DNA from: Schmidtea polychroa
Lineage: Eukaryota
Direction of reading: 5' to 3'
NCBI GenBank assembly: GCA_044892525.1
Contig: CM097886.1
Coordinates: 130,882,001 to 130,946,000, forward strand
Length of the DNA stretch: 64,000 bases
Both the position numbers and the translations under genes were made by a program. The notes under the pieces were generated by a model. It saw nothing but the letters and a program-made list of their open reading frames with translations, searched no databases and was not told the DNA's origin. Positions within the stretch are counted from its first letter, which is position 1. Each line of letters opens with the position of its first letter. Shown here in pieces: positions 17,656 through 51,293 of the stretch.

Positions 17656-20600
17656 CAGTGGCGGATTTAGAATTTGGTGCGTGGGGGGGCGAGGAAAATT
17701 TTCAGGGGGCGCCACAAATTATGAAGATGGTACTACTTATTTTCGCGAGTATTGAGTGAATACTAATATTATTAAAAAGCATTATATAATATAATTTATA
17801 TTCAGTAAATTTATTGATGTAACAAACATACAAGTTTATTTATTATTTAAATTGCTTCCTGTGTGATTTCATTGAAGCAAAATGATTTATAGTCGATTCA
17901 AAGTCAATGTTCTCAGCCAGTTCGCGTTCTATTGAAATTAATACTAATCCAGACAGACGTTCGTTTGTCATTGTTGATCGCAAACAATTTTTAATGATTT
18001 TCAGTCTACTGAAACTTCTTTCAGCAGTAGCAGATGTAACAGGAAGAGTCAAGTATATTTTATAGAGAATTCCCAAATTGGGAAGTTCTGGCGTCATCTG
18101 TTTTTCAACCAAGAAAGGCAGCACCCTTTTAAGTTGTAATTCACAAGATAGTAATGGGGGTATTGATGCATACACGTATTTGAAAGTATCATATTCTAGG
18201 ATTGCTTCTTCAATATTAATATCGTTTTTGTAAATGTCGCATAAATTTTGTAAAGATTCTTTATTTTCTTCTGATATTTGTGATGGATCAAGATAGGAGA
18301 ATAAAGCAACAGTGTTATGAAAATCATTGAAACGTTCATTTAGTTGTGTTACAAGTGTATCCAAAACAGTGAAATACGTTTCACATTTGAAGCTTGTAGT
18401 TGGATCATCAACGCTTTCATCTCTGTTAAGTTCACCTGCCATGCGTTTCCTTTTTGCAACTCGCTTTTCTTTAAATTCTGTTTCAACATCTAGTAAGGAA
18501 CAATTTTTGATAATAAATGATTTTACAGCAACATTTAGACTTTCATAAGCTTTATCACTTCTCATATCAGCAAACTTATTTCTGGCAACATAAATCAATT
18601 GTTTTCCAAACGCAATATCAATGTCCTTTCGTTGCAAATAGTTTGATAACACAAAGATATTATCTAACAGCTTTTGTATAAATAGCATCAGAAAAACAAA
18701 AGAATATTTTGTTATCAAAATAGATAGTCCCATAGCTTTTGCTCTGACACTTCCTTTGTGTTCTTTTGATTCCCCAAAATTTATATCTTCTAGAGTAGAT
18801 ATAATAGGGGAGAATGATCCAACAACTGTATCAACTGCATGCTTTCGGCTTGCCCATCTTGTATCAGAAAGTCGTTTTAGAGTATCTACTGTCGATTCAT
18901 ATCGAGACTTCTGATGTTCTTCGAGAATATGTAGTCGTGGTAGACTTGATGTAAGGAAAGTATACAACTTTTCTGTTGTACCAAAAAACAACTGAACATC
19001 ACTGTTAAGAGACATTGCTTCAATAGTCACCAAATTCAATGCATGAGAACAACAGTGAACAAAGATGGCATTTGGTGAAAGTGTCTTTATCTTAGTTTGA
19101 AGACCATTTTTAATCCCAGACATCACAGAGGCACATTCATATGTATGTCCTCTACAAAGTGTAATGTAAATGTTTCGCTTTTGTAACTCCGTTAATAATA
19201 TATTAGAAAATGCTGCAGCATTACTGTTTTCCAACGTGTAGAAGCCTATAAATCGTTCAACAACTTGTCCTGATTTTAACACTAATCTTAAAGAAACTGA
19301 CATCTGATCTGGATATATCAATTGTTGAATCAACAATTAGAGAAAAGAATTGTGCAGACCTAACTTCATTATCGATATTTGCGGATAATTCTGAGGCAGG
19401 TGATTGAATTAGGTCATTTTGTACATCATGACATAAATAAAGTTCATTTTTCTTTTCAAACTTTAGATGATTGTCCAAAGTGGAATCATATTTAGCCAAT
19501 AAAAATAGCAATTCACGAAAATTTCCAGTATTACTACACCTGTCAGAGCCAGAATGTTCTCTGTGTCCTCTAAATGGCAAACCTTGTTTTGCTAAAAACA
19601 ACGTTGCATCTACCATTCATTTCAAAACTTCTCTATTTTTTCCCACTTGATAACGCTCCTGACTGATCAAACCAGATATCACAGTTTTATCATTTGAAAT
19701 GTGATATTTAGCCAGCAAATATTGACATATTGCACTTTGATGTTGATTGGAAGTTTCATGTTTAACGATTTTTTCCATGCCTTTTTTCCAGTTATAAACT
19801 CCAAAATTTGGGTCGGACCATTCCTTGCTATAATTTTCAGTTTTACAATCAGCGAATAACCAGCAAGCTTGGCAATGCATTTTTTGCTTTGTTGGTGAAT
19901 AGACAAGCCAATTTCTTTCCTCCTTCATACTACCTTTTCCAAAACATTTTGTGTACCAAGAAATTTGAAACTTGCGCCCCAATTCATCTGTCGGAAATTG
20001 AAATGGTTCATTGAGTCCAAGTTGACATGGTCCGATTTCAAACAATTTTCGTATCAGTTTCGAGCTTATGCTCATATTAATGTTGAATCCTGGATCTGTA
20101 GGAAAGTCGGATTGAGGAAGAAGTGGTTCTTGTAAAATATCTGAAGCAAGTTGTTTTTCCACTGTATCAAATTCTGAATCACCCTGATTATGTTTCAAGC
20201 CCTGAGCAGGTAATGTTACCGTCTCAGTATTCTCTGCACATGAATGTATAGCTGGGTGTTGTTCATCAACTATAGATAGTACTTGCTCGTATTCAACAAG
20301 AACTTCAAATGATGTTTCTGTCTCAGCAGGCTCAGGACAGGAACTCGAATGCGTAGATGGGTGTTGATCATCAAATACATGCTCATTTTTAGCAGAAACT
20401 TCAGTTGATTGAACTACTGGCAGTTTAGACTGTTTAGTTATAAATGATGTTAACTTAATATATTTGCTAGCATCTGCCTTGAGACTGGCTTCCTTTGCCA
20501 ATTTACGCCTAGATGATCCACTTAATTTGGTAACTGCTTTGCTTTTATTAGTGTCACCAGCTGACTCAGCCATGGCTCTAATTTAAATTTTATTTTAATT

Positions 20601-25462: not shown

Positions 25463-25570
25463 CCAAATATTGAGAAAATGCTGTATATTTTAAGTGGATT
25501 TAAATATTTTAGCTCAGTAGATTTGGGAAGTGCGTATTACCAGGTATAACTTGAAGAAAAATCGCCAAGC
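25463..25570 (+). pseudogene. Relic of Gypsy-type reverse transcriptase
   Basis: PNIEKMLYILSGFKYFSSVDLGSAYYQV*LEEKSP matches the RT segment P.I..L...G..YFS..DL...YYQ; internal stop; lies outside the TSD-bounded element. Confidence 0.65.
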
Positions 25571-26407
25571 AAATCACGGCTCAATTTTAAACGTGAAATA
25601 ATTTTTTGGATGGTCTTCAGAACAAGTTTGTTGGGTTTATTGGATCGGTGATGAGTTATAAATTCTTCAATTACAGCGTGTTTTATCACTTCACAAATTT
25701 ATAAATTCGAGTAAGATAACTTTTATTAATAATCACAATAAATTGTACATGTTGTAATTACAGCCAATCAATTTTAATATAGACAATTATCCAGAGCTTA
25801 TTACGTCACTACGTGAAGAATAGCTCTCCGTGTACAATTCGCCAATAACAATAGTAATCACTAATCGTTGATCGATTTAATCACAGAAATACATTACTCT
25901 ATTGCTTTGACCACAATTATTTACTCCTTTTCCGCCTTTATAATAGGTTTTCAAAGATTCTCGTTATCCTCTCAATCAATATATTTTCTTAATTCTGAAC
26001 TCTTTTTATTCAACCCTTTAACTCTCCTTTTAACTTTTAATTCTCCCTTTTTATTAACTCTTTTCTAACTAACTCTGAACTAACTCTTTTCTAATTCCTC
26101 TCTAACTTCGTCTGGTCTCGGCATCTTTCCCTTTTATAGTTTGTTACATTGATGTATTTCATATAATTTTGTTTTAACATTTTTTCCTTCCCGCATTTTA
26201 CACTGTCCCTACCTTATCTCTGACAGATGTCGAGATATGCCGGCTTTTTCCTTTTTCTGTTGGGCGATTTTTTTGAAATTTCGATATCTGTGACAAACTG
26301 TCAAGATATTAATTTTTCTCTGTTTTGTTTATGGAATTTGAAATTCTTTTTTCCCCATTTGTACTTGTTAATTAATAATGACCTTTGTTTTAATTTCTTG
26401 TTTGCTT

Positions 26408-27489
26408 TGTTGAGGTCTGTAAATTAAAATTAAAAATTTAAATAAAATTTAGGATAATAATTCAAATGGAAAGTAAGCGAGGAAAAAAGGCAAATAAAAG
26501 CGGGATCGTGCACAGAATCAATAGTAAAGGAAAGTGTGACGGAAACAGTAATAGAAAATGCAAAAAGCAATTACGAAAGGCGAGAATCTGGAAATCCGAG
26601 AAAAATCAATAAATGGAAAAATCATCGAAATCGAATGGGAAAAACGGGACAGGTATAGATTAGCTAATGGTCAACAAGATGATGGTTAGGGATTTATCAG
26701 AAAAGGGTTAGGAAGGGTCGAAAAACATTCAAACGTATGAAAACAGAAAACGTTAATTAATTAATTAATTGGCTAATGGAAAACCCGAGCTAATGGGAAA
26801 CCCGAGCCAATGGAGAACCCGAGAGACAAAGGAAACCCGAGCCAATGGAGAACCCGAGAGACAAAGGAAACCCGAGCTGGGTAAACAAGAAGAAAGGCAA
26901 ACAAAAGGAAGATTTGGGCCCATTAGCTTGACACAATGATTAATGGGAAAAGAGTAAGGAGAAGATAGCGCGCGTAGGAAGACCGGTAGGGCCATTAATT
27001 ATCTGGATTCGTTGGACCATTATGGATGACAGCCGAAGCAAACACGTAGGAGAAAATGTCAAACGAAAGATTGGTTCGGCAATAACCATTTGTCATCCTG
27101 ATTTTGAAGAGTATATAAGCAAAGGGAAAATCAGAGAAAATCGGCATTTTGCCTCAGGTAGGGTAAGAAGAATCGAGAATAGTCGAGAGGTAAAAACGAA
27201 TATAGAGAAGTAGGGAAAAGAAGAGATAGAATTAAGAATACTAAAAGGTAAAAAGGAATCAAACCAAACAGAAGCCGAGGAAAACGAGAGTCAAGAGAAT
27301 CGAAAGGATCGAAAGGTGAATATCATTTGTTTGCAAAGCATCAACGCCGAGCGGAGAATCGTATAAAACTTTGATTGGTAATTGTAGCGTGATAATAAAT
27401 TGTGAACCTGTTGTTTCAATATACGTTGGGTCGTTCATTGTTTTGATTTAAAGAACACAGGAGTCAGAGAGAACCGACTTGAAATAATC
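26408..27489 (+). repeat. 5' LTR (last 12 bp missing)
   Basis: Colinear with 39948-41029; lacks the terminal CAAAACCCAACA; six ACCCGAG motifs with CCAAT boxes, TATATAA at 27112, AATAAA at 27394. Confidence 0.95.
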
Positions 27490-27770
27490 GTGATTGCAAG
27501 TCGGTGGAAAATTATTGAAAGTTAGTGAAAAAATTAATTGTTGAAAAAAAATAGTACCGACGTGATAGAAAGTCGGAGGAAATTATTGAAAGCTACTGAA
27601 AAAGAAATTATTAAAAATTTAGTACCGACGTGATTGAAAGTCGGCGGAAAGTTACTAAAGTTAGTGAAAAAGTTAATTATTGGAAAAGTACTACAGAAGT
27701 GAGTGAAAGTCGGCTGAGAATCATTAAAAGTAGTGAAAATTTGTGAAAATAGTGCTAACGAGATTATTAA
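27490..27770 (+). repeat. Leader tandem repeat (about 68 bp x4) with CCGAC-N10-GTCGG stem-loops
   Basis: Units begin GTGA(T/G)..(C/A)AAGTCGG; perfect hairpins at 27557-27576 and 27625-27644. Confidence 0.75.
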
Positions 27771-27886
27771 AGAATATTATTGGGAGATTTAAAAGAAGTT
27801 GAAAAGTAATTTTAAATTATTGTTTAACGTTTGAAGTTTAGCTCAAAGTGAACCGATACAACCTCAGAAGTCAGAAACAAGTAGAA

Positions 27887-30157
27887 ATGGCAAATGATAA
27901 TGCTGTTATGCCTCTCAATAGAGAGATGATTGATTTTGCAAGTTGCCAGAAATTACCCGTCAATCAATATGGAGGAGACCCTGTTGAATTTGCAGATTTC
28001 ATGGGAGATTATTATATGTACGCCTCAGCATACGGATGGACACAAGCCATTATGGTTCAGAGATTCCCACTCTATCTGAAGGGTGTGGCAAGAGAAGCCT
28101 GGCAGCAAGTCGACAAACGAAATGTTGGCAATGATTGGACAAAATTGAAGGATGCAATGGCACTGAAACTGGTTGGTGGAGATATCAAAAGAATCATGCG
28201 ACAGAAATTTTATAATCGAGTTCAAGGTCCAGATGAATCGGTCAGTGAGTTTGCTTATCATCTGACCACTTTAGCAGATAAAGCCTTCGAAGTCAAACCA
28301 GATCAAGCGGATATGGCCAAGCAGGTTAAAGAGCTGTTAGAAGATCAGTTTATAACCGGAGTCCACTCCGAAATTAAAAAGGCCCTATGTTATGTGGATT
28401 TTTCCAATTTCGATGAGCTCGTGAAGAAAGCCATGAAGATAGAGCTGAATTTAAAAAGTGCAAAAAGATCAGATGCTTTTGGAGTTAATGTGGAGAGACG
28501 TGAGCGATCAATTACGCCTGTGAGAGCACCATGGGATGAAAAGAAAATAAATCAAATCAGTAGTCCAATTTTGAGACCAAATAATAGATTTCAAGCCAGT
28601 AGATCAGCCATGAACGTACAATCAAATGGACAGGTAAATAATCCTCAATGCGAACATTGCAAAAAGTCTGGACACTACTCAAATCAATGTTGGTTCAAAT
28701 ATGGGAAAAATCCCAGCCCTAACAAGAGATTCACAGAAAACAAAGGGATCAGCAGTGATGTCGAATGCTATCGATGCGGAAAGAAAGGGCATATTAGCAG
28801 AAACTGTTTCACCAGATCAAGATCATCGTCAACGTCACCTTCACCACAAAGGGACAAAGTGAATACAAATGGACAGATACAATGTCATTCGTGCAAGGGA
28901 TACGGCCACATGGCGCGATCATGCCCAAGGAACTCAGAAAGATTCAACAGACCTATTTTAAAGAAATCAATCAGATTCCAAGAAGATATGCCAAACATTA
29001 GTAACATGACATATGCTCAGAGAGAGGAATTTCAAGACAAAATGGAAAAGGAATTTCGAGAAATGCGACAGAAGCTGAACAAACTAGTGGCTAAATTTGA
29101 ATCAGATGAGGAAACTGAATCTCATATGATAATTGGAACCGTGTCAGAAGGTGAAGGAAAACCTGCCATGAAAGTGCGAAAGCTCGCATCAGATGAGAAT
29201 CCGACTGCACTGTTAGCCCGAGTCGAAAAATGGCTTGAGAAAATGGAAGCTGACAACTCCCAGTTGAAACGATGGATCGCAGAACTCAGTGTGATGTCAC
29301 TAACCCAAAGTGAACTAAAGAGAGCCATAAATTTATGTGCAAAGTTATTCAAAGGAAACAGAGACGATGAGATACTTAAACAAATGCAAAAGTTTGGCAA
29401 GGCTTTACGGTCAACAAGGGATTTAGCTGATATCATAGTGGAAACGACGGGACTTGATAATGTGAAGTGCCAATTCCGTGTAAATGCCTACGGACAAATC
29501 AAAGACCTAAAGGAGCGAATACTGCGTCAATACAGTGGATGGCAAGTGCAACTAAAATTTGAGAATCGATGTCTGGAAGACGAAGAGTACTTAGTAGATT
29601 GCGGTCTGATACCAGGCTGGAAAAATAAAGTAAATGTCGTTAATGCTGTTAATACTTTGAATTCAGACAGACAAAATTGGGAAAAGATTCTAGCAGATTT
29701 ACAAGATACCCTGTGTGCAGGGAATAGAGATAAAATTAATGCGAGTATCGACTTCATAAGGAGCATCGAAATGGATCGAGACATGAAAGAAGGGTTGTTT
29801 GAATGTATCGTACCGTATACGAATAAACCGACGAGTTATCAGGCAAAGCTAAAAGAGGTAATCCGAAAACTAGGACATGATTATGAGGCGGCAGACGATA
29901 GTGCGAAGTCTTTGATAATAGCGTTAAATATTGCGGATCAAAGGATTGAATATTATCAGGAACATTGGAGTGTAAAAGCAAAGAAAATACGACAAAAAGC
30001 AGCGGAGATATTAGGTAATGACGGAATTATCGTGTTGACGTTCAAAGGACGAGAATTGGATGATGACGAATATTTATTAAACTACGGATGTAACCAAATT
30101 GTATTAATAATGTGTACGCAACAAAACAAAGTGATGAAATGGAAAGAGATGCGGTAA
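27887..30157 (+). CDS. gag: Gag with three CX2CX4HX4C knuckles, followed by coiled-coil/helical segments and two ubiquitin-like domains
   Basis: YGGDPVEFADF...W..LKDAM capsid-like region; knuckles at 28649, 28766, 28883; Ubl1 about 29429-29641 and Ubl2 about 29909-30123. The frame opens at 27842; first ATG at 27887. Confidence 0.9.
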   Translation: MANDNAVMPLNREMIDFASCQKLPVNQYGGDPVEFADFMGDYYMYASAYGWTQAIMVQRFPLYLKGVAREAWQQVDKRNVGNDWTKLKDAMALKLVGGDIKRIMRQKFYNRVQGPDESVSEFAYHLTTLADKAFEVKPDQADMAKQVKELLEDQFITGVHSEIKKALCYVDFSNFDELVKKAMKIELNLKSAKRSDAFGVNVERRERSITPVRAPWDEKKINQISSPILRPNNRFQASRSAMNVQSNGQVNNPQCEHCKKSGHYSNQCWFKYGKNPSPNKRFTENKGISSDVECYRCGKKGHISRNCFTRSRSSSTSPSPQRDKVNTNGQIQCHSCKGYGHMARSCPRNSERFNRPILKKSIRFQEDMPNISNMTYAQREEFQDKMEKEFREMRQKLNKLVAKFESDEETESHMIIGTVSEGEGKPAMKVRKLASDENPTALLARVEKWLEKMEADNSQLKRWIAELSVMSLTQSELKRAINLCAKLFKGNRDDEILKQMQKFGKALRSTRDLADIIVETTGLDNVKCQFRVNAYGQIKDLKERILRQYSGWQVQLKFENRCLEDEEYLVDCGLIPGWKNKVNVVNAVNTLNSDRQNWEKILADLQDTLCAGNRDKINASIDFIRSIEMDRDMKEGLFECIVPYTNKPTSYQAKLKEVIRKLGHDYEAADDSAKSLIIALNIADQRIEYYQEHWSVKAKKIRQKAAEILGNDGIIVLTFKGRELDDDEYLLNYGCNQIVLIMCTQQNKVMKWKEMR

Positions 30158-33100
30158 TAGTACCGTTTTGGCCTCTATATGAGGAAATGGATAATAATAA
30201 TGTGGAGATTAAAACTGAAGTTGTAGATGACCCAGGAGAAATTGATCAAGAAATTAATGAATTGCAGAGATTAGAAACAATGGAAAATGAGGAAATGGGA
30301 TCGGAAAATGAAGTTGCAAGGGATATCGAGGAAATGAGCACCGATAATAAGGTACTACCGAGCATAGATGAGATGAAGAGCGAAGAGAACTTCGTTGAAA
30401 CGAAAAATGACATTGAGATATGTCGGAAAAAACAGAATGATGCGGAAATTGAATCTTTGAGTTTAGATGAATCAAGCGAAACTGAACGTTTAGATGAATC
30501 AAGCAGGACTGAGCGAATATTAAAAAGTTTAGTTACGGAATTGTACTTGTTAGATGAAACTGAAACAGAAGGAGATGACACTTCGGAGGGGGAGAAAAGA
30601 GTTGTAAAAAGATTGGCAACGGAATTAAAGAGGAGATTACCGTCGATAATTAAAAGAAATTATGAAGAAAAGGAATTTTGTGAGGAAGCAGTAATTGAGG
30701 ACCTAACACGAACTGAGTTAGATCGAGATGTAATATTGACAGTGTTAGCCTATATAATATTGGAGATTGGTATTTATGGTTGTCTGGAAAATGACAATTC
30801 AAAATCATTGATAAAGAAAGCTACTGAAATGGTGAATAAATATTTGACTAAGTGGATCACAAACAATGGCGGATGGGAAAAGTTGATACAAAAGGCTGAG
30901 AGCCCAAAAACAGAGACAGTGAGGAAAAAGGGAAAACTCGCATTTCCATGGTTGATGATTTCTATTATTATGTTATTGGGAATAATAAACACGACGAATT
31001 CATTAGTGGCATACGACTGCTCCCAAACCGAAATGGGAAGAGTATATTCGTTGGTAAACGTAGCAGAGTGTTCGGATGCATATCCAGTAAAATTTAAAGT
31101 GACAAATCCAGTAAAATATTATGTATATCAAGAATCGGAGTTTCGACGAGCAAAGGTGAGAGAGTGTACAGTGAAACGAACTACTTTTGTATTTTATTGT
31201 GGAAAATGGAGCCACTCATCGATGGTGAAAATGCAATCGATACCTAGACCGATAGAAATGATTCCAGAGAATTGTTTGGCAGCCTTTCAAACAGGACAGT
31301 TGAAAATCAATGCAGATATCAAACTACAAGCAAAGCTTAACCATAAAATCCGTGAGACTGTAACCGTGCGAGGGATAATAAAGTCGAATGGTGATTGCCA
31401 AGGCGAGCCATACAAAGTAGACGATGCTATAATTGACAAAGCCGTGGTTGTAGAAGAGTACATGTCAGAATTAAGAGAATTTGATGGATCATTTGATGAT
31501 GATACTGGTAAACTACAAACACATCCATTCTGCACCATGAAACAATCTAGCTGTCAGACAGGAGAATCAATATTGGTGTACGATGTCGATACCAAAAAGT
31601 GCAATTTAGTGCAATTGAAGTCAATGAGTTTTAAAGAAATAACGGGAGAACAGATCAGGGAAAAGCCTGAGAAAATAAGAATGGATCCAGCAACGAGTAC
31701 AACAACAAGAATCACACCTCTACGGATGAAAGATACTCCAACAGTGTTAATGTCAACCTCGGAGGAAGATGGGATGCGATTCCTGAGAAAAGAAACTAAA
31801 ACAAAGTGTGGACAAAATGTCTATGAGACAAATTATAAAGGTATATATGTATCTCAGAAGATGATTACAGAGGCCCAAACAAACATACATGCCGGAGATA
31901 TTAAGTTGACAAATTACTTTAATAACAAAATAGATTATTTATTTCACTTTGGTCAAAATACTGTTGAAAATGTGTACCGAGAAGTTATAATAAATGATTG
32001 CAATCTCAACAAAGAAATACTCCGAAATCGGATGGCAATGGCTATAACCAATCCTAATTTGATAGCACCAATGTTAATTACAGAAAATGGGGTGTTTGCC
32101 AGAATCTTCGGTGAAGCACTATATAGCTATAAATGTAAAGCGGTACCAGTTAAACTGACAAAGTATGACCAATGCACCAACGAGTTACCAGTGAATTTAA
32201 ATGGAAAGTTGCGATTTATGGAGCCTGTAACACGAATCTTACTGGAAGAGGACGTGAAACCGAAAGTGTTACAGTGCAATAGATTGTTGGCACCACTATA
32301 CAGACTAACACCAGAATCTTGGATTGCATTACCAGATCATCGAGAAGTAAAGACACCGGAAAACTTAGAATTGACAGAATTACAATATCTGGTAAATTTT
32401 ACGTCGTTAGAGAAATTATCGCAAAGTGGAATTTACTCGAACGAAGACATTGAGGAAGCTCGCAGAAACTTGTTATTTCCATCAAAGAAAGAAAGAGTAA
32501 TAATGGAAATGGTAGATACAATTCTCCCAAGCGGAAGTGGGAAGGTAAATTACGAGTATTTGTTAACTCCAGATCATTACAAGAAAGCGACGTATAATAC
32601 AATGAAAAAGATCTGGGGAAAGTTTATGTTTATTGGACAAGCGTGTGCCGGATTGATTGGAATTTATGTAATATGTGTTGTAATCAAAGTGATAATATCG
32701 CAGGTCCTGTCAACACACAGGTTATACGCGATCACAGGTTGGTCGTGGAAACTAGTAATTGGGTGCATACCATTATTGGCTAGATTCTTCATTACTCATC
32801 ATCAATATCAGGAGTTGGAGATACTCAAGGCGCGAATATTAAAGAAGAAAAAGGTGAGCTACGCTAGTACTACCCCTTCAAGGGACGAGAATAATGACAA
32901 TGACAACGAGGGTGATAGTGCACCGTTATATGTTGACAATCAAGAACTAAGTGGAATGAATAAAGAAGCGTTGAGAACTTATCAAATCTTAAAAGAGCCA
33001 CTGTTGAATGCGAGTAGCGTAGACACGTTTACAAAATTGTGTATACCAAAATCATTTATGCAACCAGCACCAGTGTATCCAGTTGATCGATTACGAGAGA

Positions 33101-34950
33101 TGAAACCAGTGGAAAATATCGCATTACAATGTGAAGGAATAGTAGGAGAGAGAATCGAGCCTTCTAGCGCAGAGATCGAGAGAAAGAATATGTTAGGCTT
33201 ACCATGCAACTACTCATTGATGACATTAACAAAAAGAGGAAAGCAACCCCGAATATTTATACAAATGAACAAACATAAAGTGGAAGCTTTGGTTGATTCG
33301 GGATCTAGTCACACAATAATATCGGAAAATGTATTAAACGCGAAGGAGAAAATGCGAATAAAGCCTACCGACGAAATAGTGAGGTCATTATCAAAAAATG
33401 AATTAAACATAATTGGACAACTTAACGTCATATTCCATATTGGAGATCGAATAATAGCGCACGATGCGCTCATAATGAAGGGAAGTCCAGTACGATGTCT
33501 GATCGGCATGGATATATTAGAGCAGCTGGATGGAGTCTCACTTGATTTAAAGACAGGTAATTTGATAGCAGGAGAAACAGGAGAAATAATTCACAGGGCA
33601 GGTGAGGTGTTTGGGAATCAGACATTGACAATACCAAAACAATCGGAAATGGTGTATTGTGCAAATACCATGAGTATGGATAGTGGCGATTTTTTAAATG
33701 AGCCAAACCAGGCACTAGTCGAAAAATATGAAATACCGAGATGCGACCAAATAGTCAAAGTGGAAAATCAGATAGAGTCTGTACATGCAATGAAAAGTAG
33801 TAATAAACCAGTCAGCTACATCAATAAGATATTATATGTAGCAATAATGCTGATGTTAGTAACAGTTGCGAGCGGCAAAAAGATCGACTTACCATATGCG
33901 GTAAACAAAATCCGAGGAATGGAGAAAATACATATATATTCCACTCTAAAAAATATAGTATGGAGCTGTAAATGCGAGATCGCAGACCAAATAGAAATTA
34001 TTGATTTACTAGACAATACGGTACCAGTGGTAGAACTAAATTATGATAAAGATATATTTGCGGTACGAAAGTTAAAGCCAAATTTCAAATACCAATGGCT
34101 GTTGAGACAGAACATGTCAAAGTGGTACACGCAAATTCCGATAGAAGTGCACACAAAAGAGATGCGAAACTTGATTGAAATAGAACCAGAGATAAATGGA
34201 ATCAATATATCTTGGAAGCCAGTGGACTTGGTGAAAGTGCGAATCACATTTCAAGGGTTAAATGTCGACACCCTTAACTCGCGAAAATCATTTATCCGCT
34301 ATGAGAAATTGAAAATGAATCAAAATTATTCAGTTAATGCAAACTACTACGAGAACATATGCCTCGAAAATGGAACGGTAGTGAGAAACCAATGGTCACG
34401 ATTTAAGAGCGAGACCCAGTCTATCTATCTCAGAGACGAGTCAAATCGTATAACCCTGAGTGTTGGAAATGGACCGGTAACGATATATAGAAAATCAGGA
34501 AATGATGAAAGAGTTGTTATTATCTACAAACAAAAAACCCTGACTATATTAGATGCCGGTAATCATTTTTTTACACTTTACACTTCTGATTTAGAGACGG
34601 CATGGGAATTAACAGTTAAATATCAGCGATGGATAACCGAACCAGGCAGATGGCAAACAGTTTTCGTGGAAGTCAAGACAATCAATGAAACGAAACGAAA
34701 ATCATATACAACCACATCACCTTTCCAATTACCGACCCAAGAGACGACAAAACCTAACTCAAACAAACTAATGATGATAAATTCGGATTTGACAGTCAAC
34801 TATTGTGAATATCTCATTTACATTCTAATAACAGGTTTTCTTATCTTATCAATAACATTCATAATCATCACCATCTTGATATGTGTAAAAGAGAGACAAC
34901 TAACTATCCTTCAACCACCATCATATTCATATTATGAGACAAGACTATAA
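30112..34950 (+). CDS. Polyprotein: acidic linker, Bcl-2-like domain, TM/signal, class III fusion glycoprotein, TM, retropepsin, FN3-like membrane protein
   Basis: 1612-aa uninterrupted ORF in the -1 frame relative to gag. WITNNGGWE (BH2-like), AYDC/FYCG..SH/NELPV env motifs, LVDSGSSHTII plus LIGMDIL protease, second signal-like segment and C-terminal TM. Confidence 0.9.
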   Translation: MYATKQSDEMERDAVIVPFWPLYEEMDNNNVEIKTEVVDDPGEIDQEINELQRLETMENEEMGSENEVARDIEEMSTDNKVLPSIDEMKSEENFVETKNDIEICRKKQNDAEIESLSLDESSETERLDESSRTERILKSLVTELYLLDETETEGDDTSEGEKRVVKRLATELKRRLPSIIKRNYEEKEFCEEAVIEDLTRTELDRDVILTVLAYIILEIGIYGCLENDNSKSLIKKATEMVNKYLTKWITNNGGWEKLIQKAESPKTETVRKKGKLAFPWLMISIIMLLGIINTTNSLVAYDCSQTEMGRVYSLVNVAECSDAYPVKFKVTNPVKYYVYQESEFRRAKVRECTVKRTTFVFYCGKWSHSSMVKMQSIPRPIEMIPENCLAAFQTGQLKINADIKLQAKLNHKIRETVTVRGIIKSNGDCQGEPYKVDDAIIDKAVVVEEYMSELREFDGSFDDDTGKLQTHPFCTMKQSSCQTGESILVYDVDTKKCNLVQLKSMSFKEITGEQIREKPEKIRMDPATSTTTRITPLRMKDTPTVLMSTSEEDGMRFLRKETKTKCGQNVYETNYKGIYVSQKMITEAQTNIHAGDIKLTNYFNNKIDYLFHFGQNTVENVYREVIINDCNLNKEILRNRMAMAITNPNLIAPMLITENGVFARIFGEALYSYKCKAVPVKLTKYDQCTNELPVNLNGKLRFMEPVTRILLEEDVKPKVLQCNRLLAPLYRLTPESWIALPDHREVKTPENLELTELQYLVNFTSLEKLSQSGIYSNEDIEEARRNLLFPSKKERVIMEMVDTILPSGSGKVNYEYLLTPDHYKKATYNTMKKIWGKFMFIGQACAGLIGIYVICVVIKVIISQVLSTHRLYAITGWSWKLVIGCIPLLARFFITHHQYQELEILKARILKKKKVSYASTTPSRDENNDNDNEGDSAPLYVDNQELSGMNKEALRTYQILKEPLLNASSVDTFTKLCIPKSFMQPAPVYPVDRLREMKPVENIALQCEGIVGERIEPSSAEIERKNMLGLPCNYSLMTLTKRGKQPRIFIQMNKHKVEALVDSGSSHTIISENVLNAKEKMRIKPTDEIVRSLSKNELNIIGQLNVIFHIGDRIIAHDALIMKGSPVRCLIGMDILEQLDGVSLDLKTGNLIAGETGEIIHRAGEVFGNQTLTIPKQSEMVYCANTMSMDSGDFLNEPNQALVEKYEIPRCDQIVKVENQIESVHAMKSSNKPVSYINKILYVAIMLMLVTVASGKKIDLPYAVNKIRGMEKIHIYSTLKNIVWSCKCEIADQIEIIDLLDNTVPVVELNYDKDIFAVRKLKPNFKYQWLLRQNMSKWYTQIPIEVHTKEMRNLIEIEPEINGINISWKPVDLVKVRITFQGLNVDTLNSRKSFIRYEKLKMNQNYSVNANYYENICLENGTVVRNQWSRFKSETQSIYLRDESNRITLSVGNGPVTIYRKSGNDERVVIIYKQKTLTILDAGNHFFTLYTSDLETAWELTVKYQRWITEPGRWQTVFVEVKTINETKRKSYTTTSPFQLPTQETTKPNSNKLMMINSDLTVNYCEYLIYILITGFLILSITFIIITILICVKERQLTILQPPSYSYYETRL
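30937..32800 (+). CDS. env: Env-like glycoprotein domain, chuvirus/Monjiviricetes-type class III fusogen
   Basis: Signal FPWLMISIIMLLGII, then LVAYDCS, C..K.TTFVFYCGKWSH, GDCQG, CGQNVYETNYKGIY, YFNNKIDYL, GEALYSYKC, CTNELPV, FMEPVTRIL, SGIYS, and TM FMFIGQACAGLIGIYVICVVI. Family assigned from recalled motif pattern. Confidence 0.75.
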
Positions 34951-35131
34951 ATTGTGATCTGCATGCTATAAATAGTGTATAAAAATATATTATATTTATA
35001 TCAACAATGTGCATGTTTTATAAGTACCATAGGATGAACTGTGTAATTTGTTTGAGATTCGAAGCGAGGTGTTGATGCTTTGCGAATAAAGAGTGATACA
35101 AAAAAAAATAACTATCATTTAATTTCAGAGA

Positions 35132-35377
35132 ATGCAAGAAACCTCGGAGATGACATGCAAAGAGTGTAAAACAAGTACGCAAGAACTAAAGCAAAGGTTT
35201 CGTAGCATGCAGGGCAGAATAACAGATTTGGAGGAAGAAAACTTCCGTCTAAAAAGGCGGTTGGACCGTTTGGAAATCTTATTGTTTCAACACGAAGCCG
35301 ATTTCGCGATGTTTCGAATGAGAGTAGAAGAAATAGAGGAATCGGAAGATGATGGTGAGATAAATCAATTAGACTAA
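35132..35377 (+). CDS. Small coiled-coil/acidic accessory ORF (81 aa)
   Basis: ATG ORF just after a TTTAATTTCAG acceptor-like site; heptad pattern LKQRFRSMQGRITDLEEENFRLKRRLDRLEILL; GC-richer than flanks. Confidence 0.55.
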   Translation: MQETSEMTCKECKTSTQELKQRFRSMQGRITDLEEENFRLKRRLDRLEILLFQHEADFAMFRMRVEEIEESEDDGEINQLD

Positions 35378-35926
35378 AAAAATAAATTATTTAAACGGAC
35401 CCTGTTGGTGTTTTTTCGTCCTCGAGAGAAAAAAATAATAGTAAATAAATATAAGTAAATTAACAATCAAAGGAATAAACAAATTGATATAAAGAAATAA
35501 TTGGCAGTGATAAATAATAGTTAAATAAAAATAAGTAGATTACCAAGTAAATAATCAAATGAATAAACAAATTGATATAAATAAATAATTAAAAAAGTGA
35601 TAAATTAAATAAATGAATAATAGATAAAAATGAACAAAGTTAAACGAGCAAATAGAATAACTCAAATAAATGTTGCAAATAATGAAATGACTACCTTAAA
35701 TGAGCATTAGAAATAAATAATATTAAATGACTGATTAGTAATTAATGAATTAGCATAACTATATAGCAATGGGTAACCCACTGGGGCGAGAGAACAAAAT
35801 TATAAATAAGTAAGGAATAATTTCACATTAGTAGTAACAAAGACTAATCACGAAGAGGGACACAATTACCCCACCCTTTCTAGCATAAATTGAAAACAAA
35901 GGTATGCGGAACATTTATTCAAAGTT

Positions 35927-36229
35927 TTATTCGTCATCAGAGTCCAACAGAACGGGACTTTGAATGCCACAGTCCCATTCCCTGCGTACATTGCAAGGCG
36001 GGCGTCGTTCAAACCTACTGCCTGTATCCACACAGGCAAAGGTACGTTTCAATCCCTTTCGACGCGGTAACAAAGGGACCCTGAAAAAGAAATTAAAAAA
36101 CCTGTTAGTATAGCAGTCAAATAACCATTGCATAACATCGAGATGCTCAAACTTAGGTTCTGGGACAGCCTAAAATAGTAAGGGTTGAAAAGAAAAATGA
36201 AATAAATACTATGTAAAACTCCGTACCAT
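35927..36229 (-). CDS. Antisense spliced ORF inside the LTR element (about 66 aa if the ATG at 36229 is the start)
   Basis: Exons 36229-36227 (ATG), 36169-36126, 36080-35927; GT-AG introns of 57 and 45 nt; reads MAVPEPKFEHLDVMQWVPLLPRRKGLKRTFACVDTGSRFERRPPCNVRREWDCGIQSPVLLDSDDE*; AATAAA at 35919-35914. Confidence 0.55.
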
Positions 36230-36760
36230 GGCGCCCTCGACAAATAATTAGTGCAGGGAAGTAATTGATTTTAAGAATTACGTAATAAATTAATAAGTAT
36301 AAATACGGCTAAAATTGTCAGAAAAATACGAGTAGCTGTAATTAGAGGTTTGCTTTTAGTATAAATACAAAATCAAAAATCAAAAATATATGACCCAAAA
36401 CATGAGTGTGGTATAGGTAGTTGCATAAACAAATTAAAGTTAAAAAGTAAATAAGTTAATTTAATAAGCATCAATAAGTTAATTTAATAAGCAACACGAG
36501 CACTTGCAATCACCGGGGTTTGGCTACCCTGGACAGCGATTGCAAATGTTCGGTTACTATGAGGGTAGTTGAGGACAGCATGGTAAAAAGAATCACAAAT
36601 ACAAAAAATAACAAAAGATAAGTAATCACTTACGTCCATAGTAATTGAGGGATGGCGTTACTAAAATTCAAAAAAAAATATGAAAAAGAAAATATAAAAT
36701 GCTTACTTCAAGATGGGCAAGACAAAACTAACGAAAAGTGGTAAAGCAGAAACTTATATA

Positions 36761-36900
36761 GAACGCTTATCAGTACAGACTACGTTGACAAACTACAGGG
36801 TAATTAATTAGAAAGCTTATCAGCACGGCTACGTAAGAAACCACAGGGTAATTAATTATAGAGCCTATCGGTATCGGCTACGTCAAAAACCGCAGGATAA
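36761..36900. repeat. Degenerate tandem repeat, about 49 bp x3
   Basis: GCTTATCAG.AC.GCTACGT...AAAC.ACAGGGTAATTAATTA units. Confidence 0.7.
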
Positions 36901-37734
36901 GTAAAAATTCATTCGGAATATTAATGTTCATCGCAGATACCTTATCAGGCTGAGTAAACAAGTGATATCATGAGTCGGTCGGTGCGGGGGAGATTAACTT
37001 TTTACCATGCTGCGAGCGAAATAAACCAACAAGTTATTAATAACAAAAAATTATTTTTAAATCATATTATTAATAATAATGGTAATAATGATGAAAGAAA
37101 AAATATAAATAAAAAAATAAATAAATTACCTTGCGACTGGGAATAAATTAGACAAATATTTTGCACATAAAAATCGATCAAACCGTAAAGACACACACAC
37201 AGACAGACACACAAGCATATCCCATCAACTGCTCAACTCTGTTATTAACCACAATTTTATCCATATTCTTGGTAAACCGTATTCATCTTGAACAATAACA
37301 ACAACCACAGCTAATATCATCGCGCTACTAACAATATAGTATAAGAAATTTTCAATAAATTTTACTGTTGATTTCCACCAAAGTCACCAGTCTAATCAAT
37401 TAATGAATTCATAAACTCTCACACAAAAATTGTAAAAATGCAAATTGTAACAAAATATAATTTAATCAGATACTATTAAAAAATTTCTTTTTATTCTCAC
37501 CACATAACCAAAATAGGAGCAATATACACTTTCAAAATGCAGGAATATCTTTTTAATATCCTGAAATAATAAACTAAATGTACTCTGTAATATCCTAAAA
37601 TAATTAATTTCAATACTCTGAAACTACAATAACCTTAACAGACTGTCGTTAGTCTACTCAATTTATTAATTTTTAATAGACGTCAGATAAAAATTATTTC
37701 CCTCAATTAATAGACGCCCCGATAATCGGATAAA

Positions 37735-37821
37735 TAATAATAATAATAATAATATTGATAAAATAATAATATTGATAATAATAATGGTAATGATAGTGGT
37801 AATAACAGTAATAATTATAAC

Positions 37822-37867
<46 letters not shown>

Positions 37868-37895
37868 TTGATAGTAGTAATAATAATAGTAGTAG
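37735..37895. repeat. (AAT)n/(AGT)n compound microsatellite
   Basis: Direct reading. Confidence 0.9.
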
Positions 37896-39935
37896 TAGTA
37901 ATTTTTCAAGTTTATTTCTCATTTAAATTGATATCTCTAACATTTCAGGGAACTGCAAATATTATTACTCTTTCGTAATTTTCAAATAATTTCCAACTAT
38001 AATTTGCAAGCATTACACAAATGCCTAAATATTATTTTAAATGCTCAATTATATCCACTCAAATCCTCATGCTAATAAATAACAAGATTAATAACAATTT
38101 TATACAAATCATTGAATTGCTTTATAATTGCCGATATTTCATAACATCACATATAATTGTTACATAAAATGAATAAATAATAAACCTACTTCAATCTTAA
38201 AAAATATAAATTAATAAACCAAAAAAAAATCATTTGCTAAAAATATTTCAGAATATAAAAAGATTTTCATTATTTTATTGAACCTTCGATTTGAGCTGGA
38301 ATTCTGAGATTTGATCGACAGATTATAAATATATATCTCAAACCTGTGCTATAATTTTCATAATTCAATGTTGTCAGTGCATATCGATTTTTCCCCAACT
38401 TATCAATCATCGGTTTTAAGAATCAATGACTAAGAATAATTCGAATCTTTATACAATTAATACAAAAAAAAATAAAAATTAATCTAACCATTTTGTGTTT
38501 CTTCTTCAACGTTTTGTAGCATGCATGGTTTTTATAACCCAATCGTCAACCATAAATAAGTGTGAATGAAATTTAAGCCAAACTCTAATATAAAAAATAA
38601 ATATATTGTTGTTAAATTCGTTTAAATCAAGTGATTGAATTTTCATTTCCTGCTTTTAAAAAGCTATATTTTCTCTCTTTCAGCCGTTGACAAATGGCCA
38701 ATCAAATTGAAGAGAGTGTGTGTCATCAAAATTATTAGAGACACGACAATAATGATTTTATAAGCATCTCTTGTACATGTACACATGGAGAGAAATAATT
38801 TCATTACCATTACATACATACAACTGCAAACTGATTGGGTGTTGTATATTTTATTTACTTTCTGACAAAAATTAATCAGCAAATCCCATTAATCACCTCT
38901 ATTTTGTTTACATTGGCCAATCTCGGTTTACACGAGCAATTACGAAAAAGATTTATCTTATCTCTTTTTCAAGGCGTTTTGAGTCCATGATCGGCAATTG
39001 CCCGAAGCCGAATATATCGAAGAGAAAAAAAAATCCCCATTGATTAGAAATGTCTGATAACGACAGAACTAATACAATTAGAATATATTTAAAATCAAGA
39101 CCATTTTTTCAATTCAAACAGAAAATGTTTTTGGGTTTATAACAAAGGTATCGAAATGTTATATTTCTCTACAAAAAAATATATATATATATAATTACAC
39201 AATGTGAAATTTATCCTGAAGCTTATAGGATTGAAATTTTTAATTTATAAATTTTAAATCAAACTTATAATTTTAAAATGTATTATAAAATAAGGGGCAA
39301 ATTATAGTCGACACCATAAATAAGTCTTTTGAAAACTGTATTACTAAAAATGAAATGAAACTGTGATAGTACATTTTTATTTCAGTGAAACAAAAATAAA
39401 ATAAAAACAATTGCGCAAATAAGATTTGGACCGTGGATCCATTTCAGAGTGACGTTTTGGCTACGGGAATATCAACAAATGCAAATGGGAAATTAATAGG
39501 TCTTTTGGAAAATGAATTTTGAAAGTCGATTATTGCAATTTATTTGATTTACTATAAATTACCTGAAGTTATTGGGCAAATATTTGTTTGGGAAATATTT
39601 AAATAATTAATAATTTAGCCTTATTTTATTTAATGTATAATATATAATAAGTTAAACTAAAATCTTTAAATATAATTTAAAATAATTAAAACCAATAAAA
39701 TCAATAATTAATTAATTCATAGAGCAATTAAAATATAAAATTAATCTGAAAAATTAAAATGTCACGGTTGAATAAAAAAAAATATATCTTGAAGTAATAA
39801 TTCGGATAAATAGTAATAATAATAATAAGGGTAATATTAATAATAATAATAATAGTGATAATAATGACAACAATAATAATAATAATAATACATAATCACA
39901 GCAAAACATAGATTTCGAGAACGAAAAAATTTTTT

Positions 39936-39945
39936 AAGGGGGAGA
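39936..39945 (+). other. Polypurine tract
   Basis: AAGGGGGAGA, 2 nt upstream of the 3' LTR TGT. Confidence 0.85.
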
Positions 39946-39947: not shown

Positions 39948-41041
39948 TGTTGAGGTCTGTAAATTAAAATTAAAAATTTAAATAAAATTTAGGATAATAA
40001 TTCAAATGGAAAGTAAGCGAGGAAAAAAGGCAAATAAAAGCGGGATCGTGCACAGAATCAATAGTAAAGGAAAGTGTGACGGAAACAGTAATAGAAAATG
40101 CAAAAAGCAATTACGAAAGGCGAGAATCTGGAAATCCGAGAAAAATCAATAAATGGAAAAATCATCGAAATCGAATGGGAAAAACGGGACAGGTATAGAT
40201 TAGCTAATGGTCAACAAGATGATGGTTAGGGATTTATCAGAAAAGGGTTAGGAAGGGTCGAAAAACATTCAAACGTATGAAAACAGAAAACGTTAATTAA
40301 TTAATTAATTGGCTAATGGAAAACCCGAGCTAATGGGAAACCCGAGCCAATGGAGAACCCGAGAGACAAAGGAAACCCGAGCCAATGGAGAACCCGAGAG
40401 ACAAAGGAAACCCGAGCTGGGTAAACAAGAAGAAAGGCAAACAAAAGGAAGATTTGGGCCCATTAGCTTGACACAATGATTAATGGGAAAAGAGTAAGGA
40501 GAAGATAGCGCGCGTAGGAAGACCGGTAGGGCCATTAATTATCTGGATTCGTTGGACCATTATGGATGACAGCCGAAGCAAACACGTAGGAGAAAATGTC
40601 AAACGAAAGATTGGCTCGGCAATAACCATTTGTCATCCTGATTTCGAGGAGTATATAAGCAAAGGGAAAATCAGAGAAAATCGGCATTTTGCCTCAGGTA
40701 GGGTAAGAAGAATCGAGAATAGTCGAGAGGTAAAAACGAATATAGAGAAGTAGGGAAAAGAAGAGATAGAATTAAGAATACTAAAAGGTAAAAAGGAATC
40801 AAACCAAACAGAAGCCGAGGAAAACGAGAGTCAAGAGAATCGAAAGGATCGAAAGGTGAATATCATTTGTTTGCAAAGCATCAACGCCGAGCGGAGAATC
40901 GTATAAAACTTTGATTGGTAATTGTAGCGTGATAATAAATTGTGAACCTGTTGTTTCAATATACGTTGGGTCGTTCATTGTTTTGATTTAAAGAACACAG
41001 GAGTCAGAGAGAACCGACTTGAAATAATCCAAAACCCAACA
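39948..41041 (+). repeat. 3' LTR (complete, 1094 bp)
   Basis: TGTTGAGG...CCCAACA followed by TSD GCTT; AATAAA at 40934. Confidence 0.97.
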
Positions 41042-41850
41042 GCTTTATTTTGTTTGATTTCTCATTTCATGCTTCTTTTTACTTCCGTTTTCTTTTCTGA
41101 ATTCCCATAGATCGTCCCGTTTGCCAGGTAATTTTATTTATTTTTCATATTATTTATTATTCAGGTATCCTCAACAAGTTCAACAATAATTGAACCCATG
41201 CGGAAAATCATTACCATATAAGTAAGAATTAAAATATTCACATAGAGACATTAATTGCGATTTTCCATAAAAATGCATAAGTAAAATAGTAGATTCTATA
41301 CTGCAGATAAACTAATATTTCTAGAAATCATTTAATTCAACTAAAAGTATTCAGACATTCAAACGGTTAGTAGATTTAAAAACTGATACTTATCTTCCAA
41401 AATCACCAGCTTCGAAATTATGTTGAGCATTCGTCATCTTGAGATTTATTTGATTCAAAAACTTTGAGCATAAAGTGTGAACATCTCGATATTGGAGAAT
41501 CCGTTTAGTGTAACACTCGAGCATATACGGTTTGATTGAAAAAAAACCTTGAGCAATTGTTAATTAACTTCATCTGATTCAAAAGTTGGGGGGGCATATA
41601 ACATTTGAGTTTAAAAACTTCGAACATATAAATATTTAGCTTCATTCGATTCAAAAGCTTGCATATGGAATTTAATTTAAAATACGTGACCATATTGATA
41701 TCTAAAACATCTTTTGTTTTTCAAACTTCCAATCACTTGAAATTATAAATTAGAGCCTGCCTATAATTATCAGACTTGGAGCTAAATAAAAAATCATTAA
41801 AATTTTCTAAAATTATTAGATAAGAAATTGAATATATAATTTATAAAATA

Positions 41851-43893: not shown

Positions 43894-46800
43894 AATTCCT
43901 CAATTTACGCTGTAGATACGTTCCAAGAAACTAATGGGCAAATCGAAACCGCGTAAATCGAGGCTTCAAATTCATACAAAAATAATAGATGGGTTCCAGA
44001 AAATCGCGTAAAACGAGGCATAAAAATACAATTTTATTTAGAAATAGATTTAAAAAATCGACATTTAAATTTTAAAATCGCTACTATCTTCGGATTCAAA
44101 CCCAGCAGCGTGCTCTTCTTCTCGTTTTATTAAATAGTCTGTAAACAATTTTTGTGTTTTGTTTTTTTAAAAATCTTTGTAAATTTCACTGTATTGCACG
44201 CAAAGGCTTTTAATGTCTAGCTGAAATTTAACAGCACGGTCAATATCAGGATCAGTGGCCAAAACCTTATTTTCTAAGTTACTGGCCAATTGTAAATTAT
44301 AAACAAGCAAATCTTGGGCGAAACACGTGCACTCCACAACATAATATTTGACGTACTGCAGGCGTAATGGAGTGGGTTACAGACGTCTAGTCGTTGTCAT
44401 GCATTTGAGAGACACTTGCCACTAAATATGTTTGATTTAATTAAAAAAATATTATTTTGTATGACCGTGTAAAATGGGTAATATTATACTGTAATATTAT
44501 ACTGTATGTGATATTCTTATTTTTGTTATTTGGTGATGCAATTATCACTGTCACTTACACATGATCTAGGTCATCACTACACACAAAATATGCACATAGC
44601 GCCGATGAGCCCTATTCCGGATTTACCTATAGGCAGACTAGGCACTGCCTAGGGGCCCGCAGTTTTGGGGGCCCCAAAATCGAAATCATCTAAGGGGCCA
44701 CAAAAAAAATATTTTTTTTAATGTATTTTTTATATACTAAAATATAAAAAAATTAAAATACAGTATAAAATACATGTATTATATAAAGAATTAAAAAAAC
44801 ATTGTACGTATTTTTTTATTTAAGGAAATTTTCTAAAATATCAACAATTTGGGGCCCCAATAATTTTAAAAGTTATTATAGTTGAAAAAATATTTTTTCT
44901 TTATTTCCGCAACCTCCAAGGGGGTTATAATTAGTGGAGTTTGTCGGTTGAAATTTGCGAAGGCGGGAATCGAATTGTTATTTTGTAGAAACATATTTTT
45001 TTGGAGTGTTGGTAAAAATTTTATACACAAAAGAAAAAAATTATTTCAAAGGAAATCGGCTTAAAAATAAAAAATTTAAAATAAAGCAATTTTAGGACGA
45101 AGTGAGGCTTTTTTTTAATTGATTAATTGTTAAGATCTAGGTATAGTATAAAAATATTAAAATTATTTAATCAATTTAATTAAAAAATACTTTAATTAAA
45201 TTTAAGATAGAATGAAACGAAACTACGCAAGCGGAGCGTTTAAAAGGAAGAAAAAAGCAGAGAGAGAAGAAGAAATTAAGAAAATTCCTAAGCTAGATTG
45301 TTTTTTCACTAAAGATTCTGCAACTGAAAGTGAATTTGTAGCACAAGAAGATCGGCACCAAAGCGACCAAATAGAGGTCTCTTCCAGTACTTCAAATCAA
45401 CCTATTTTCACTGGAAGTTCAAATCAAGTTTTTAATTATTTCGAAAATAATTTGGAGCTGGTAGATAACATTAATAATGAAAATTTAGTGGAATCCCTGA
45501 TTGAATCATCTCCAAATGCAAATCGTGAGAATGACGTAGGATTATGGAGAGAATTGTCTTCTGAAGACACTTTGTACTGGATTGAGAAGGGCCCTGAAAG
45601 TTGCCAACATTCAACAGAAAACTTTCATTCTTCCAAACAGCTCTATAATGACAATACTGTTCGATATTGCTCTAAGACTTTATTCTTTGATGAAAAAACA
45701 AATGGAGAAAAGTACACTCGCGAATGGCTTGTATATTCGCCTAAAATTGGAAATGTTTTTTGTTTTGTTTGCAAATTACTCACTGCTTCAAATTTCAATT
45801 TAGCAACCAATGGCCTGCGAGATTGGAAAAATGCTGGTTCCTCAATCAAAAGCCATCAAAACTCTTCTGAACATCGTAATGCTTTAGTTACATAGTTAAC
45901 TAGAAAAAGTAACTATTCTGTGTCGGATCAATTGCAAAAAGAAATACAACAAGAAAGGATTTACTGGAGAAAAGTCTTAGAACGAGTTGTAGCTGTTATT
46001 TGCACCATTGTTGAACGAAATTTACCATTTCGAGGATCAAATGAAATTTTTGGAATGGAAGGAAGTGGCAATTTCATTGGACTCTTGGAACTTATTGCAA
46101 AATTTGATCCATTTTTAGCAGAGCACATTAGAAAGTTTGGTAATCCAGGATCTGGAAAAACTTCTTATCTCTCTAAAACAATTTTTGAGGAATTGCTCGA
46201 TCTGATGGCAAAAACAGTATTGAAGTCGATTTCTGATGACATCAAACAATCAAAATATTTTGGAATGTCTGTGGATTCCACCCCTGATATATCACACAAA
46301 GATCAATTGTGCATGATTATCAGATACGTTGATCAAATCAATTTTAAACCAATCGAGCGATTCTTAAACTTTATTGAGATAGAGAATCACACTGGAGAAT
46401 ATTTAGCTGACATTTCATTGGAATTTTTTGAAAAGGATATTGGGTTAAATTTTCAAGATTGCCGATCACAATCGTATGACAACGCTATGAATATGGCCGG
46501 AAAATACAAAGGAATGAGGGCAAAAGTTCTTGAAAAAAATGATAAAGCAATTTTTTTACCGTGCAGTGCTCATTCTTTGAATTTGGTTGGAAATTCAGGT
46601 GCGGACTGTTGCATAGAATCAATCAATTTTTTCGGATTAATTCAGGAAATTTACAATTTTTTTTCATCGTCTACTAAGAGATGGAACAAGTTAGTTGAAT
46701 TTTCAAATAGAACGGTAAAATCGTTATCAAAGACTAGATGGAGTGCTCGTTCTGAGTCAGTTAAGGTCATTCACAAAAACTATGAAAATGTAATGGAAGC

Positions 46801-50960: not shown

Positions 50961-51089
50961 TGTTTTAATTATCGATGATTATATAATTTTGTTTAAATCA
51001 TTGATTATATAATTCTTTTGTTTTAATTATAGAATACGTAATAATATAATTTTGTTTAAATCGTTGATTACATATTATTATTTTCTAAG

Positions 51090-51164
<75 letters not shown>

Positions 51165-51293
51165 CATATATACACCGAGTCTATCCGACAAAATATTCTG
51201 TCCCCCTATGGGTACTGCTCACAAATGTACTACTCACATTCAACAAGTCACAAGGGTACTGTTCACACTCAATATGTCGTAAATTAATATTAA

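Follow-up and report, generated by a model that had tools for sequence, protein, structure and literature searches.

A long terminal repeat (LTR) element of 14,634 bp is described here from Schmidtea polychroa (assembly GCA_044892525.1, contig CM097886.1, positions 130,882,001 to 130,946,000 of the forward strand; this stretch of 64,000 nucleotides is the window, and all coordinates are positions within it). The element (14.6 kb) features LTRs of 1.1 kb, which enclose an open reading frame (ORF) where an envelope (Env) glycoprotein precedes a protease (PR). It is quite probably a recent insertion of a non-autonomous element derived from a Burro-like member of Ty3/gypsy with the GAG-ENV-POL order, and descent from a Burro-type GAG-ENV-POL Ty3/gypsy element is very probable. 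The analysis shows the order of the domains, the fold class of Env, the Gypsy-type Pol of the relatives, the absence of a reverse transcriptase (RT) and of an integrase (IN), and the anatomy of the LTRs and of the target site duplication (TSD).

The Env-PR frame is ORF2 (30094-34950, + strand, first ATG at 30139), which encodes 1618 aa in a single stop-free frame. At this base composition the probability of 875 stop-free codons by chance is ~1e-31, which excludes a chance origin of the open frame. A previous sequence-only reading had seen a single frame run from an Env-like ectodomain and its transmembrane helix (TM) through a linker into a DSG protease, and ORF2 confirms this arrangement. That description was accurate for the env-protease frame; it missed the ubiquitin-like and Bcl-2-like domains as well as a second signal-ectodomain-TM module downstream.

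Env glycoprotein and membrane topology

The Env ectodomain (31003-32619, +) is assigned by its profile and its modelled fold to the class III fusion glycoproteins of the gB/chuvirus G type. The Pfam family is PF24664 (Monjiviricetes_fusion, E 1.2e-94), and the structural model matches herpesvirus gB and chuvirus G. Both results agree with the class III, Monjiviricetes-type fusogen proposed earlier. Sequence identity is ~20% to chu-like glycoproteins and 10-12% to gB. A profile made from alignment A1 retrieved no gB from the PDB sequences, only a spurious huntingtin match, and the likeness to gB is therefore structural only.

An internal signal peptide (30931-31002, +; hydrophobic part 30931-30996) is located directly ahead of the ectodomain, with a predicted cleavage just before LVAYDC (AYDC at 31009). 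All 16 relatives displayed (16/16) feature a hydrophobic stretch directly ahead of the env start, which in most cases ends in a small-residue site. Signal peptidase therefore probably opens Env inside the precursor.

The Env TM (32620-32718, +) is followed by a second conserved hydrophobic segment that is weak (32722-32802, +; aa 877-903). Topology was scored on a crude hydrophobicity scale, on which the Env TM of this copy and its relatives ranges from -0.9 to +3.2 kcal/mol and the second segment from +4.7 to +8.1 kcal/mol; in this copy a stretch with a net charge of +5 follows the second segment. Because the second segment scores far worse than the TM and precedes a basic stretch, a single membrane crossing with a cytosolic protease is the likeliest arrangement on this scale, and the second segment is probably amphipathic rather than transmembrane. 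The presumably cytosolic linker (32803-33240, +) is ~146 aa long when counted from the end of the weak segment and ~175 aa when counted from the TM, so that the former estimate of about 150 aa was fair. The proposal that PR is tethered to the Env tail stands in part: the cytosolic side is the likeliest one, and from it we infer the tethering itself.

Order of env and pol in the relatives

The relatives were collected as 151 protein records with a query that included PR. Sixteen of these records contain env together with a Pol-type marker, and env comes first in 15; since the query held PR, and since an env encoded downstream in an ORF of its own would not appear in a protein record, this count is biased and shows recurrence of the order, not its frequency. 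P0016 features Gag-Env-PR-RT-RH-IN (RH, RNase H) in a single record, and P0004, P0008, and P0015 feature Env-PR-RT-RH-IN. Among the 15 env-first records, P0035 (env and RNase H only) falls outside the clade described below and two are fragments that are not in the tree. The exception is P0096, in which the BEL/Pao domain DUF5641 precedes env.

The env tree was built with FastTree from 56 sequences, namely the window, 20 selected records and, of the remaining matches with a span >480 aa, the first 35. The Env of the window groups with 17 polyprotein-embedded relatives with a support of 1.0, apart from the stand-alone glycoproteins and from P0096, and thus belongs to a well-supported clade of polyprotein-embedded glycoproteins. 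All Pol-bearing members of this clade (12/12) have env first. The order of env before pol is a recurring one in the family and is not a one-off, as the sequence-only reading had supposed.

The relatives carry RT_RNaseH and Integrase_H2C2 domains, with full RT and IN in four members of the env clade. The Pol of P0008, the only Pol tested, matches Ty3-G best (E 5e-119). These results bear on the alternative that the locus arose by a single rearrangement, or is a BEL/Pao element of the Anakin type in which env originally followed integrase. The Pfam family that Env has in common with Anakin-type glycoproteins would fit this alternative, as would P0096 with DUF5641 ahead of env; however, P0096 lies outside a clade in which every Pol-bearing member has env first, and the Pol domains of the relatives match Ty3. 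There is hardly any probability left for this alternative, and the earlier preference for a Gypsy over a BEL/Pao affiliation holds.

P0019 joins mitochondrial ribosomal protein L47 to an env start that is 67% identical; it is probably a chimera of gene models.

Gag, Bcl-2-like region, and reading frames

ORF1 (27842-30157, +; 771 aa from stop to stop, first ATG at 27887) encodes Gag and accessory domains. The capsid region matches Retrotrans_gag (28064-28321, +; PF03732, E 5.6e-9) and is followed by three CX2CX4HX4C zinc knuckles (28649-28924, +) that start at 28649, 28766, and 28883, in agreement with the knuckles noticed before. A ubiquitin-like domain (29435-29614, +) matches PF00240 with an E of 4e-5 to 2e-4, which is under the curated cut-off, and the domain is also matched in P0001 and P0008. 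A second ubiquitin/SUMO-like domain (30032-30112, +) is weak, with E 0.084 for PF00240 and E 0.085-0.15 for PF11976. A Ubi2/SUMO-like domain is common to this copy and P0001, P0008, and P0017.

The N-terminal part of ORF2 consists of an acidic region and a Bcl-2-like stretch with BH1-BH2 (30685-30876, +) that ends in WITNNGGW. The Pfam match is weak (E 0.011, under the curated cut-off), and all PDB sequence matches at E<=10 (38/38) belong to the Bcl-2 family. A profile of five sequences reaches Bcl-xL with E 0.005 in a PDB profile search. A Bcl-2-like region is located just before env in four relatives (P0002, P0007, P0013, and P0017), and the Pfam scores are E 9.6e-4 for P0007 and E 2e-5 for P0013, which was not in the seed. 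The Bcl-2-like assignment, made from sequence, is weak but consistent. A single-sequence structural model of the region is poor, with a predicted local distance difference test (pLDDT) score of 56; it matched generic helical bundles with Bcl-2 unlisted, which does not exclude a Bcl-2 fold.

ORF2 is in the -1 frame relative to ORF1 and overlaps it by 64 nt, so that gag is not in frame with env in this copy. The earlier notion of a single polyprotein applies to seven relatives in which a single record holds both gag and env, and does not apply to this copy as assembled. The overlap may be programmed, or it may be a mutation or an assembly error. A programmed -1 slippage was looked for, and 29900-30200 features no XXXYYYZ heptamer.

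The frames could also be expressed as two ORFs, with Gag made alone and Bcl-2-Env-PR made from its own start, by splicing, or by a non-canonical frameshift, which would set the stoichiometry of Gag to Env. Each frame is long and uninterrupted by stops, an ATG for ORF2 stands at 30139, and P0002, P0004, P0006, and P0007 begin 149-164 aa ahead of env. The missing heptamer, the seven relatives with gag and env in one record, and the single ORF1 of 4,873 aa given for Burro (PMC6431247) all speak against it, and the records with the short start may be incomplete or broken. We consider this mode of expression possible, if somewhat doubtful.

Protease, C-terminal membrane module, and missing Pol domains

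The retropepsin protease (33241-33534, +; DSG at 33295) matches four aspartic-protease Pfam families with a best E of 9e-8 and features the motifs LVDSG at 33289 and LIGMDIL at 33499. Among the relatives, two to four tandem protease domains follow env in P0001, P0002, P0004, P0005, P0006, P0010, and P0011, and P0004 has one further protease domain after integrase. In this copy PR is followed by a stub of the PR-RT spacer (33544-33804, +) that is homologous to P0071, P0003, and P0008. The stub occupies the position of the Burro dUTPase-like domain, and no dUTPase match was found in it. Homology to the Pol of the relatives stops at ~33760-33804, within the spacer and right before a second internal signal-like hydrophobic segment (33811-33876, +). 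This segment opens a putative luminal ectodomain with five N-glycosylation sequons (33877-34800, +), which is closed by a strong C-terminal TM helix and a short tail (34801-34899, +).

No RT, RNase H, or IN family was found in any of the six frames (0 families in 6/6) by a Pfam scan of the element in which stops were read as X, and tblastn with the polyproteins of five relatives located none within the LTRs. A decayed RT-like fragment (25463-25576, +; tblastn E 0.004) is located just outside the 5' LTR and is from another element. Downstream of ORF2 there is a small ORF of 84 aa (35123-35377, +) with weak coiled-coil-type matches only, a possible accessory ORF, followed by a non-coding AT-rich 3' region (35378-39935) that lacks RT, RNase H, and IN and gave no Rfam or tRNA match.

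A similar layout recurs in IN-bearing relatives. A signal-ectodomain-TM pair closes three of the four records that reach integrase (P0004, aa 2484-2740; P0008, 2256-2566; P0015, 2777-3196), and the fourth stops at IN. The post-IN modules of P0004 and P0008 have an FN3-like L.P.T.Y motif in common and gave no Pfam fn3 match; comparison of their ectodomains gave a z of 2.0 (21/500 shuffles). The C-terminal ectodomain of this copy has no similarity to the post-IN modules of the relatives (z -0.9, -0.7, and -0.1; 500 shuffles), no match at E<=0.01 among 1293 candidates, no relevant Pfam match, and no PDB match. Atlas features describe it as FN3-like (0.89, recognition 2037), and the proteins it resembles there are FN3-TM proteins of chordates, FNDC4/5 among them (0.88-0.89); these values are below the Atlas confidence marks and serve as a lead only.

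An alternative of the same ancestry is that the host supplied both the module after PR and the 5-kb tail, which replaced RT-RH-IN by transduction; the module would then not be a post-integrase module of the family. The dissimilarity to the post-IN modules and the FNDC4/5 look-alikes would be expected from a capture, as would the tail, which is AT-rich like the host and in which the strand skew of the element is lost after position ~37 kb. The module itself, however, is intronless and in frame, its GC content at third codon positions (0.37) and A-skew (0.21) are those of the element (0.33-0.39 and 0.20-0.28 in the other domains), and three of the four IN-bearing relatives end in the same way. 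Capture is unlikely on balance.

LTRs, age, and integrity of the insertion

The element has the hallmarks of an LTR retrotransposon, namely TG...CA LTRs, a TSD, and a polypurine tract. The 4-bp TSD noted previously is GCTT on both flanks (26404-26407 and 41042-41045), and each of the TSD 4-mers in the window (GCTT and the CTTC described below) has a frequency of 0.2-0.35%. BEL/Pao elements have TSDs of 5-6 bp. The 5' LTR (26408-27489, +) starts with TG and is a direct repeat of 39948-41029. It lacks the final 12 nt (the U5 end) that are present in the 3' LTR and in a solo LTR, and its truncated end runs into tandem repeats, which is either a deletion or an assembly artefact. Inspection of the junction by eye revealed no TGG-type primer-binding site motif directly after the 5' LTR. 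The leader (27509-27750, +) consists of imperfect tandem repeats of ~70 nt. The polypurine tract (39936-39945, +) ends 2 nt upstream of the 3' LTR (39948-41041, +; 1094 nt, TG...CA), which is directly followed by GCTT. The solo LTR (12457-13516, -) is from a related subfamily, is 84.6% identical, and has TG...CA termini with its own 4-bp TSD, CTTC. Its complete CA end confirms the end of the 3' LTR at 41041. An identity as Troyka was rejected, since the CG termini and 3-bp TSD given for Troyka in PMC12440569 do not fit.

The two LTRs differ by 3 mismatches in 1082 nt, and the insertion is therefore young. Its age also bears on whether the locus was domesticated, with the host retaining it as a fusogen gene or as a decoy against viruses. 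Two long intact ORFs without RT and IN, and a damaged U5/primer-binding site junction, could be read in that direction. In an insertion this young, however, intact ORFs need no host selection, and domestication is very improbable.

Proposed organization of the precursor

The parent plan would be a long precursor threaded through the endoplasmic reticulum like an RNA-virus polyprotein. The Gag-ubiquitin-like-Bcl-2 part, here represented by the N-terminus of ORF2, would stay cytosolic and be anchored by the internal signal peptide of Env. Bcl-2 proteins are held at membranes by a tail anchor, to which anchoring by the Env signal would be a parallel. In the lumen, signal peptidase would release the gB-type ectodomain at its N-terminus, and one TM would bring the chain back to the cytosol, where PR, with RT-RH-IN in the autonomous relatives, would hang on the Env tail. 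The second signal would open the last ectodomain-TM module, and PR would then release Gag and Pol by cutting. Tethering of this kind would bring capsid, enzymes, and fusogen together; any particle-forming or fusion activity is putative. The loss of RT-RH-IN would most likely go back to an internal deletion that kept the frame and removed what lay between the PR-RT spacer and the last module, and with these domains lost the copy would need the RT and IN of a helper to move, in trans.

Several points weigh against the derivation from a Burro-like GAG-ENV-POL element. The count of env-first records is biased, a two-ORF plan is possible because gag and env occupy different frames here and four relatives start ~150 aa before env, and the Bcl-2 matches are weak by both Pfam and PDB profile. 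The ectodomains of the last modules have no sequence similarity, so that layout is what the deletion origin rests on.

A wider interpretation, speculative and rather doubtful, is that the precursor of Burro-like elements is anchored twice in the membrane and carries two surface glycoproteins: a class III fusogen ahead of Pol and, behind IN, a type I protein that is FN3-like, evolves fast and is possibly an attachment partner. The Env signal would at once serve a Bcl-2-like anti-death domain as its tail anchor, and this copy, a satellite dependent on a helper, would have dropped RT and IN while retaining its capsid, the Bcl-2 domain, the fusogen, the protease, and the attachment protein. Fusogens of the gB type often need an attachment partner.

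Other features of the window

A compact TBP-like ORF (1-384, +; PF00352, E 2.5e-15) and a 158-aa ORF (1207-1683, +) are located at the edge of the window; as a guess, they may derive from an element of the Maverick type or one that is DNA virus-like. Host gene pieces at 3046-9053 (+) encode EGF, laminin G, EGF, and a TM, which correspond to a Fat/cadherin-like C-terminal region. Two hAT transposase genes (Dimer_Tnp_hAT, DUF4371) are interrupted by stops (17843-20582, -; 45206-47710, +). At 48131-49190 a 146-nt unit is repeated in tandem about seven times, with a related copy at 43613. A large, nearly perfect nested inverted repeat at 49931-55537 features arms of up to 100% identity and internal tandem units of 21 and 64 nt, and is either a foldback-like element or an assembly fold.

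Comparison with known systems

According to Arkhipova and Yushenova (2019, PMC6431247), Burro1-4/GYPSM1 are giant Ty3/gypsy elements of Schmidtea mediterranea with a relative in Dugesia tigrina. Planarian Burro/GYPSM1 is described there with a Gag that features three CCHC knuckles, a Ubi2/SUMO-like and a BCL2-like domain, an env with matches to mononegavirus fusion proteins that sits in frame after BCL2 and before PR, and a dUTPase-like region ahead of RT. The present element is similar in its three-knuckle Gag, ubiquitin-like domains, weak Bcl-2-like region, env in frame between the BCL2-like region and PR, and spacer after PR. It differs from Burro, which is >30 kb and has RT, RNase H, and IN in one giant ORF with gag, in its size of 14.6 kb with 1.1-kb LTRs, its lack of RT, RNase H, and IN, its out-of-frame gag, the absence of MATH, BIR, and ankyrin Pfam matches, and the signal-ectodomain-TM module after PR. 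This likeness is judged from published descriptions of the domain order. The element is filed as a Burro-like derivative and not as Burro proper, because it differs in size and in RT, RNase H, and IN.

The 'ancient errantiviruses' reported from Nematoda, Bryozoa, and Platyhelminthes (Chary and Hayashi, PMC13524379) are GAG-ENV-POL elements with a gB-type env; the first nematode report is credited there to Sacco et al. 2022. This copy resembles them in its class III env of the herpes simplex virus/gB type and in the gag-env-pol order between LTRs, with pol reduced to PR. It is unlike them in the absence of RT and IN, since full-length Ty3/gypsy RT and IN were required for that set. The main text of PMC13524379 does not contain the words 'Bcl', 'ubiquitin', 'fibronectin', or 'Burro'. 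Anakin, described in PMC7642597 as a mosquito BEL/Pao element with a chuvirus glycoprotein, has the glycoprotein superfamily PF24664 in common with this copy. In contrast, no BEL/Pao Pfam domains were found in this copy or in the env clade, and the Pol of the relatives is Gypsy. The ectodomain fold is also common to chuvirus/xinmovirus G and herpesvirus gB, and is here embedded in a retroelement precursor.

No description of a membrane module after IN was found in the literature text searched; figures and other supplements may already show such a module or non-autonomous copies. A Burro figure by Grohme (2018) reportedly lists transmembrane-protein domains.

An in-frame env between gag and pol, which the sequence-only reading had implied to be new, is already published for Burro (2019, PMC6431247) and for three phyla (PMC13524379). 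With this order known since 2019, the value of the locus is confirmatory, and its addition is modest but testable. The Burro-type env is placed by structure in the class III Monjiviricetes/gB family. A topology in which the Env signal anchors Gag-Bcl-2, Pol hangs on the tail of Env, and another membrane protein follows IN has seemingly not been tested so far, and assays of topology and processing would find a natural substrate in the intact ORF2 of this young derivative. Relative to the known systems, the residual interest of the element is in its RT/IN-less form and in the possible second glycoprotein.
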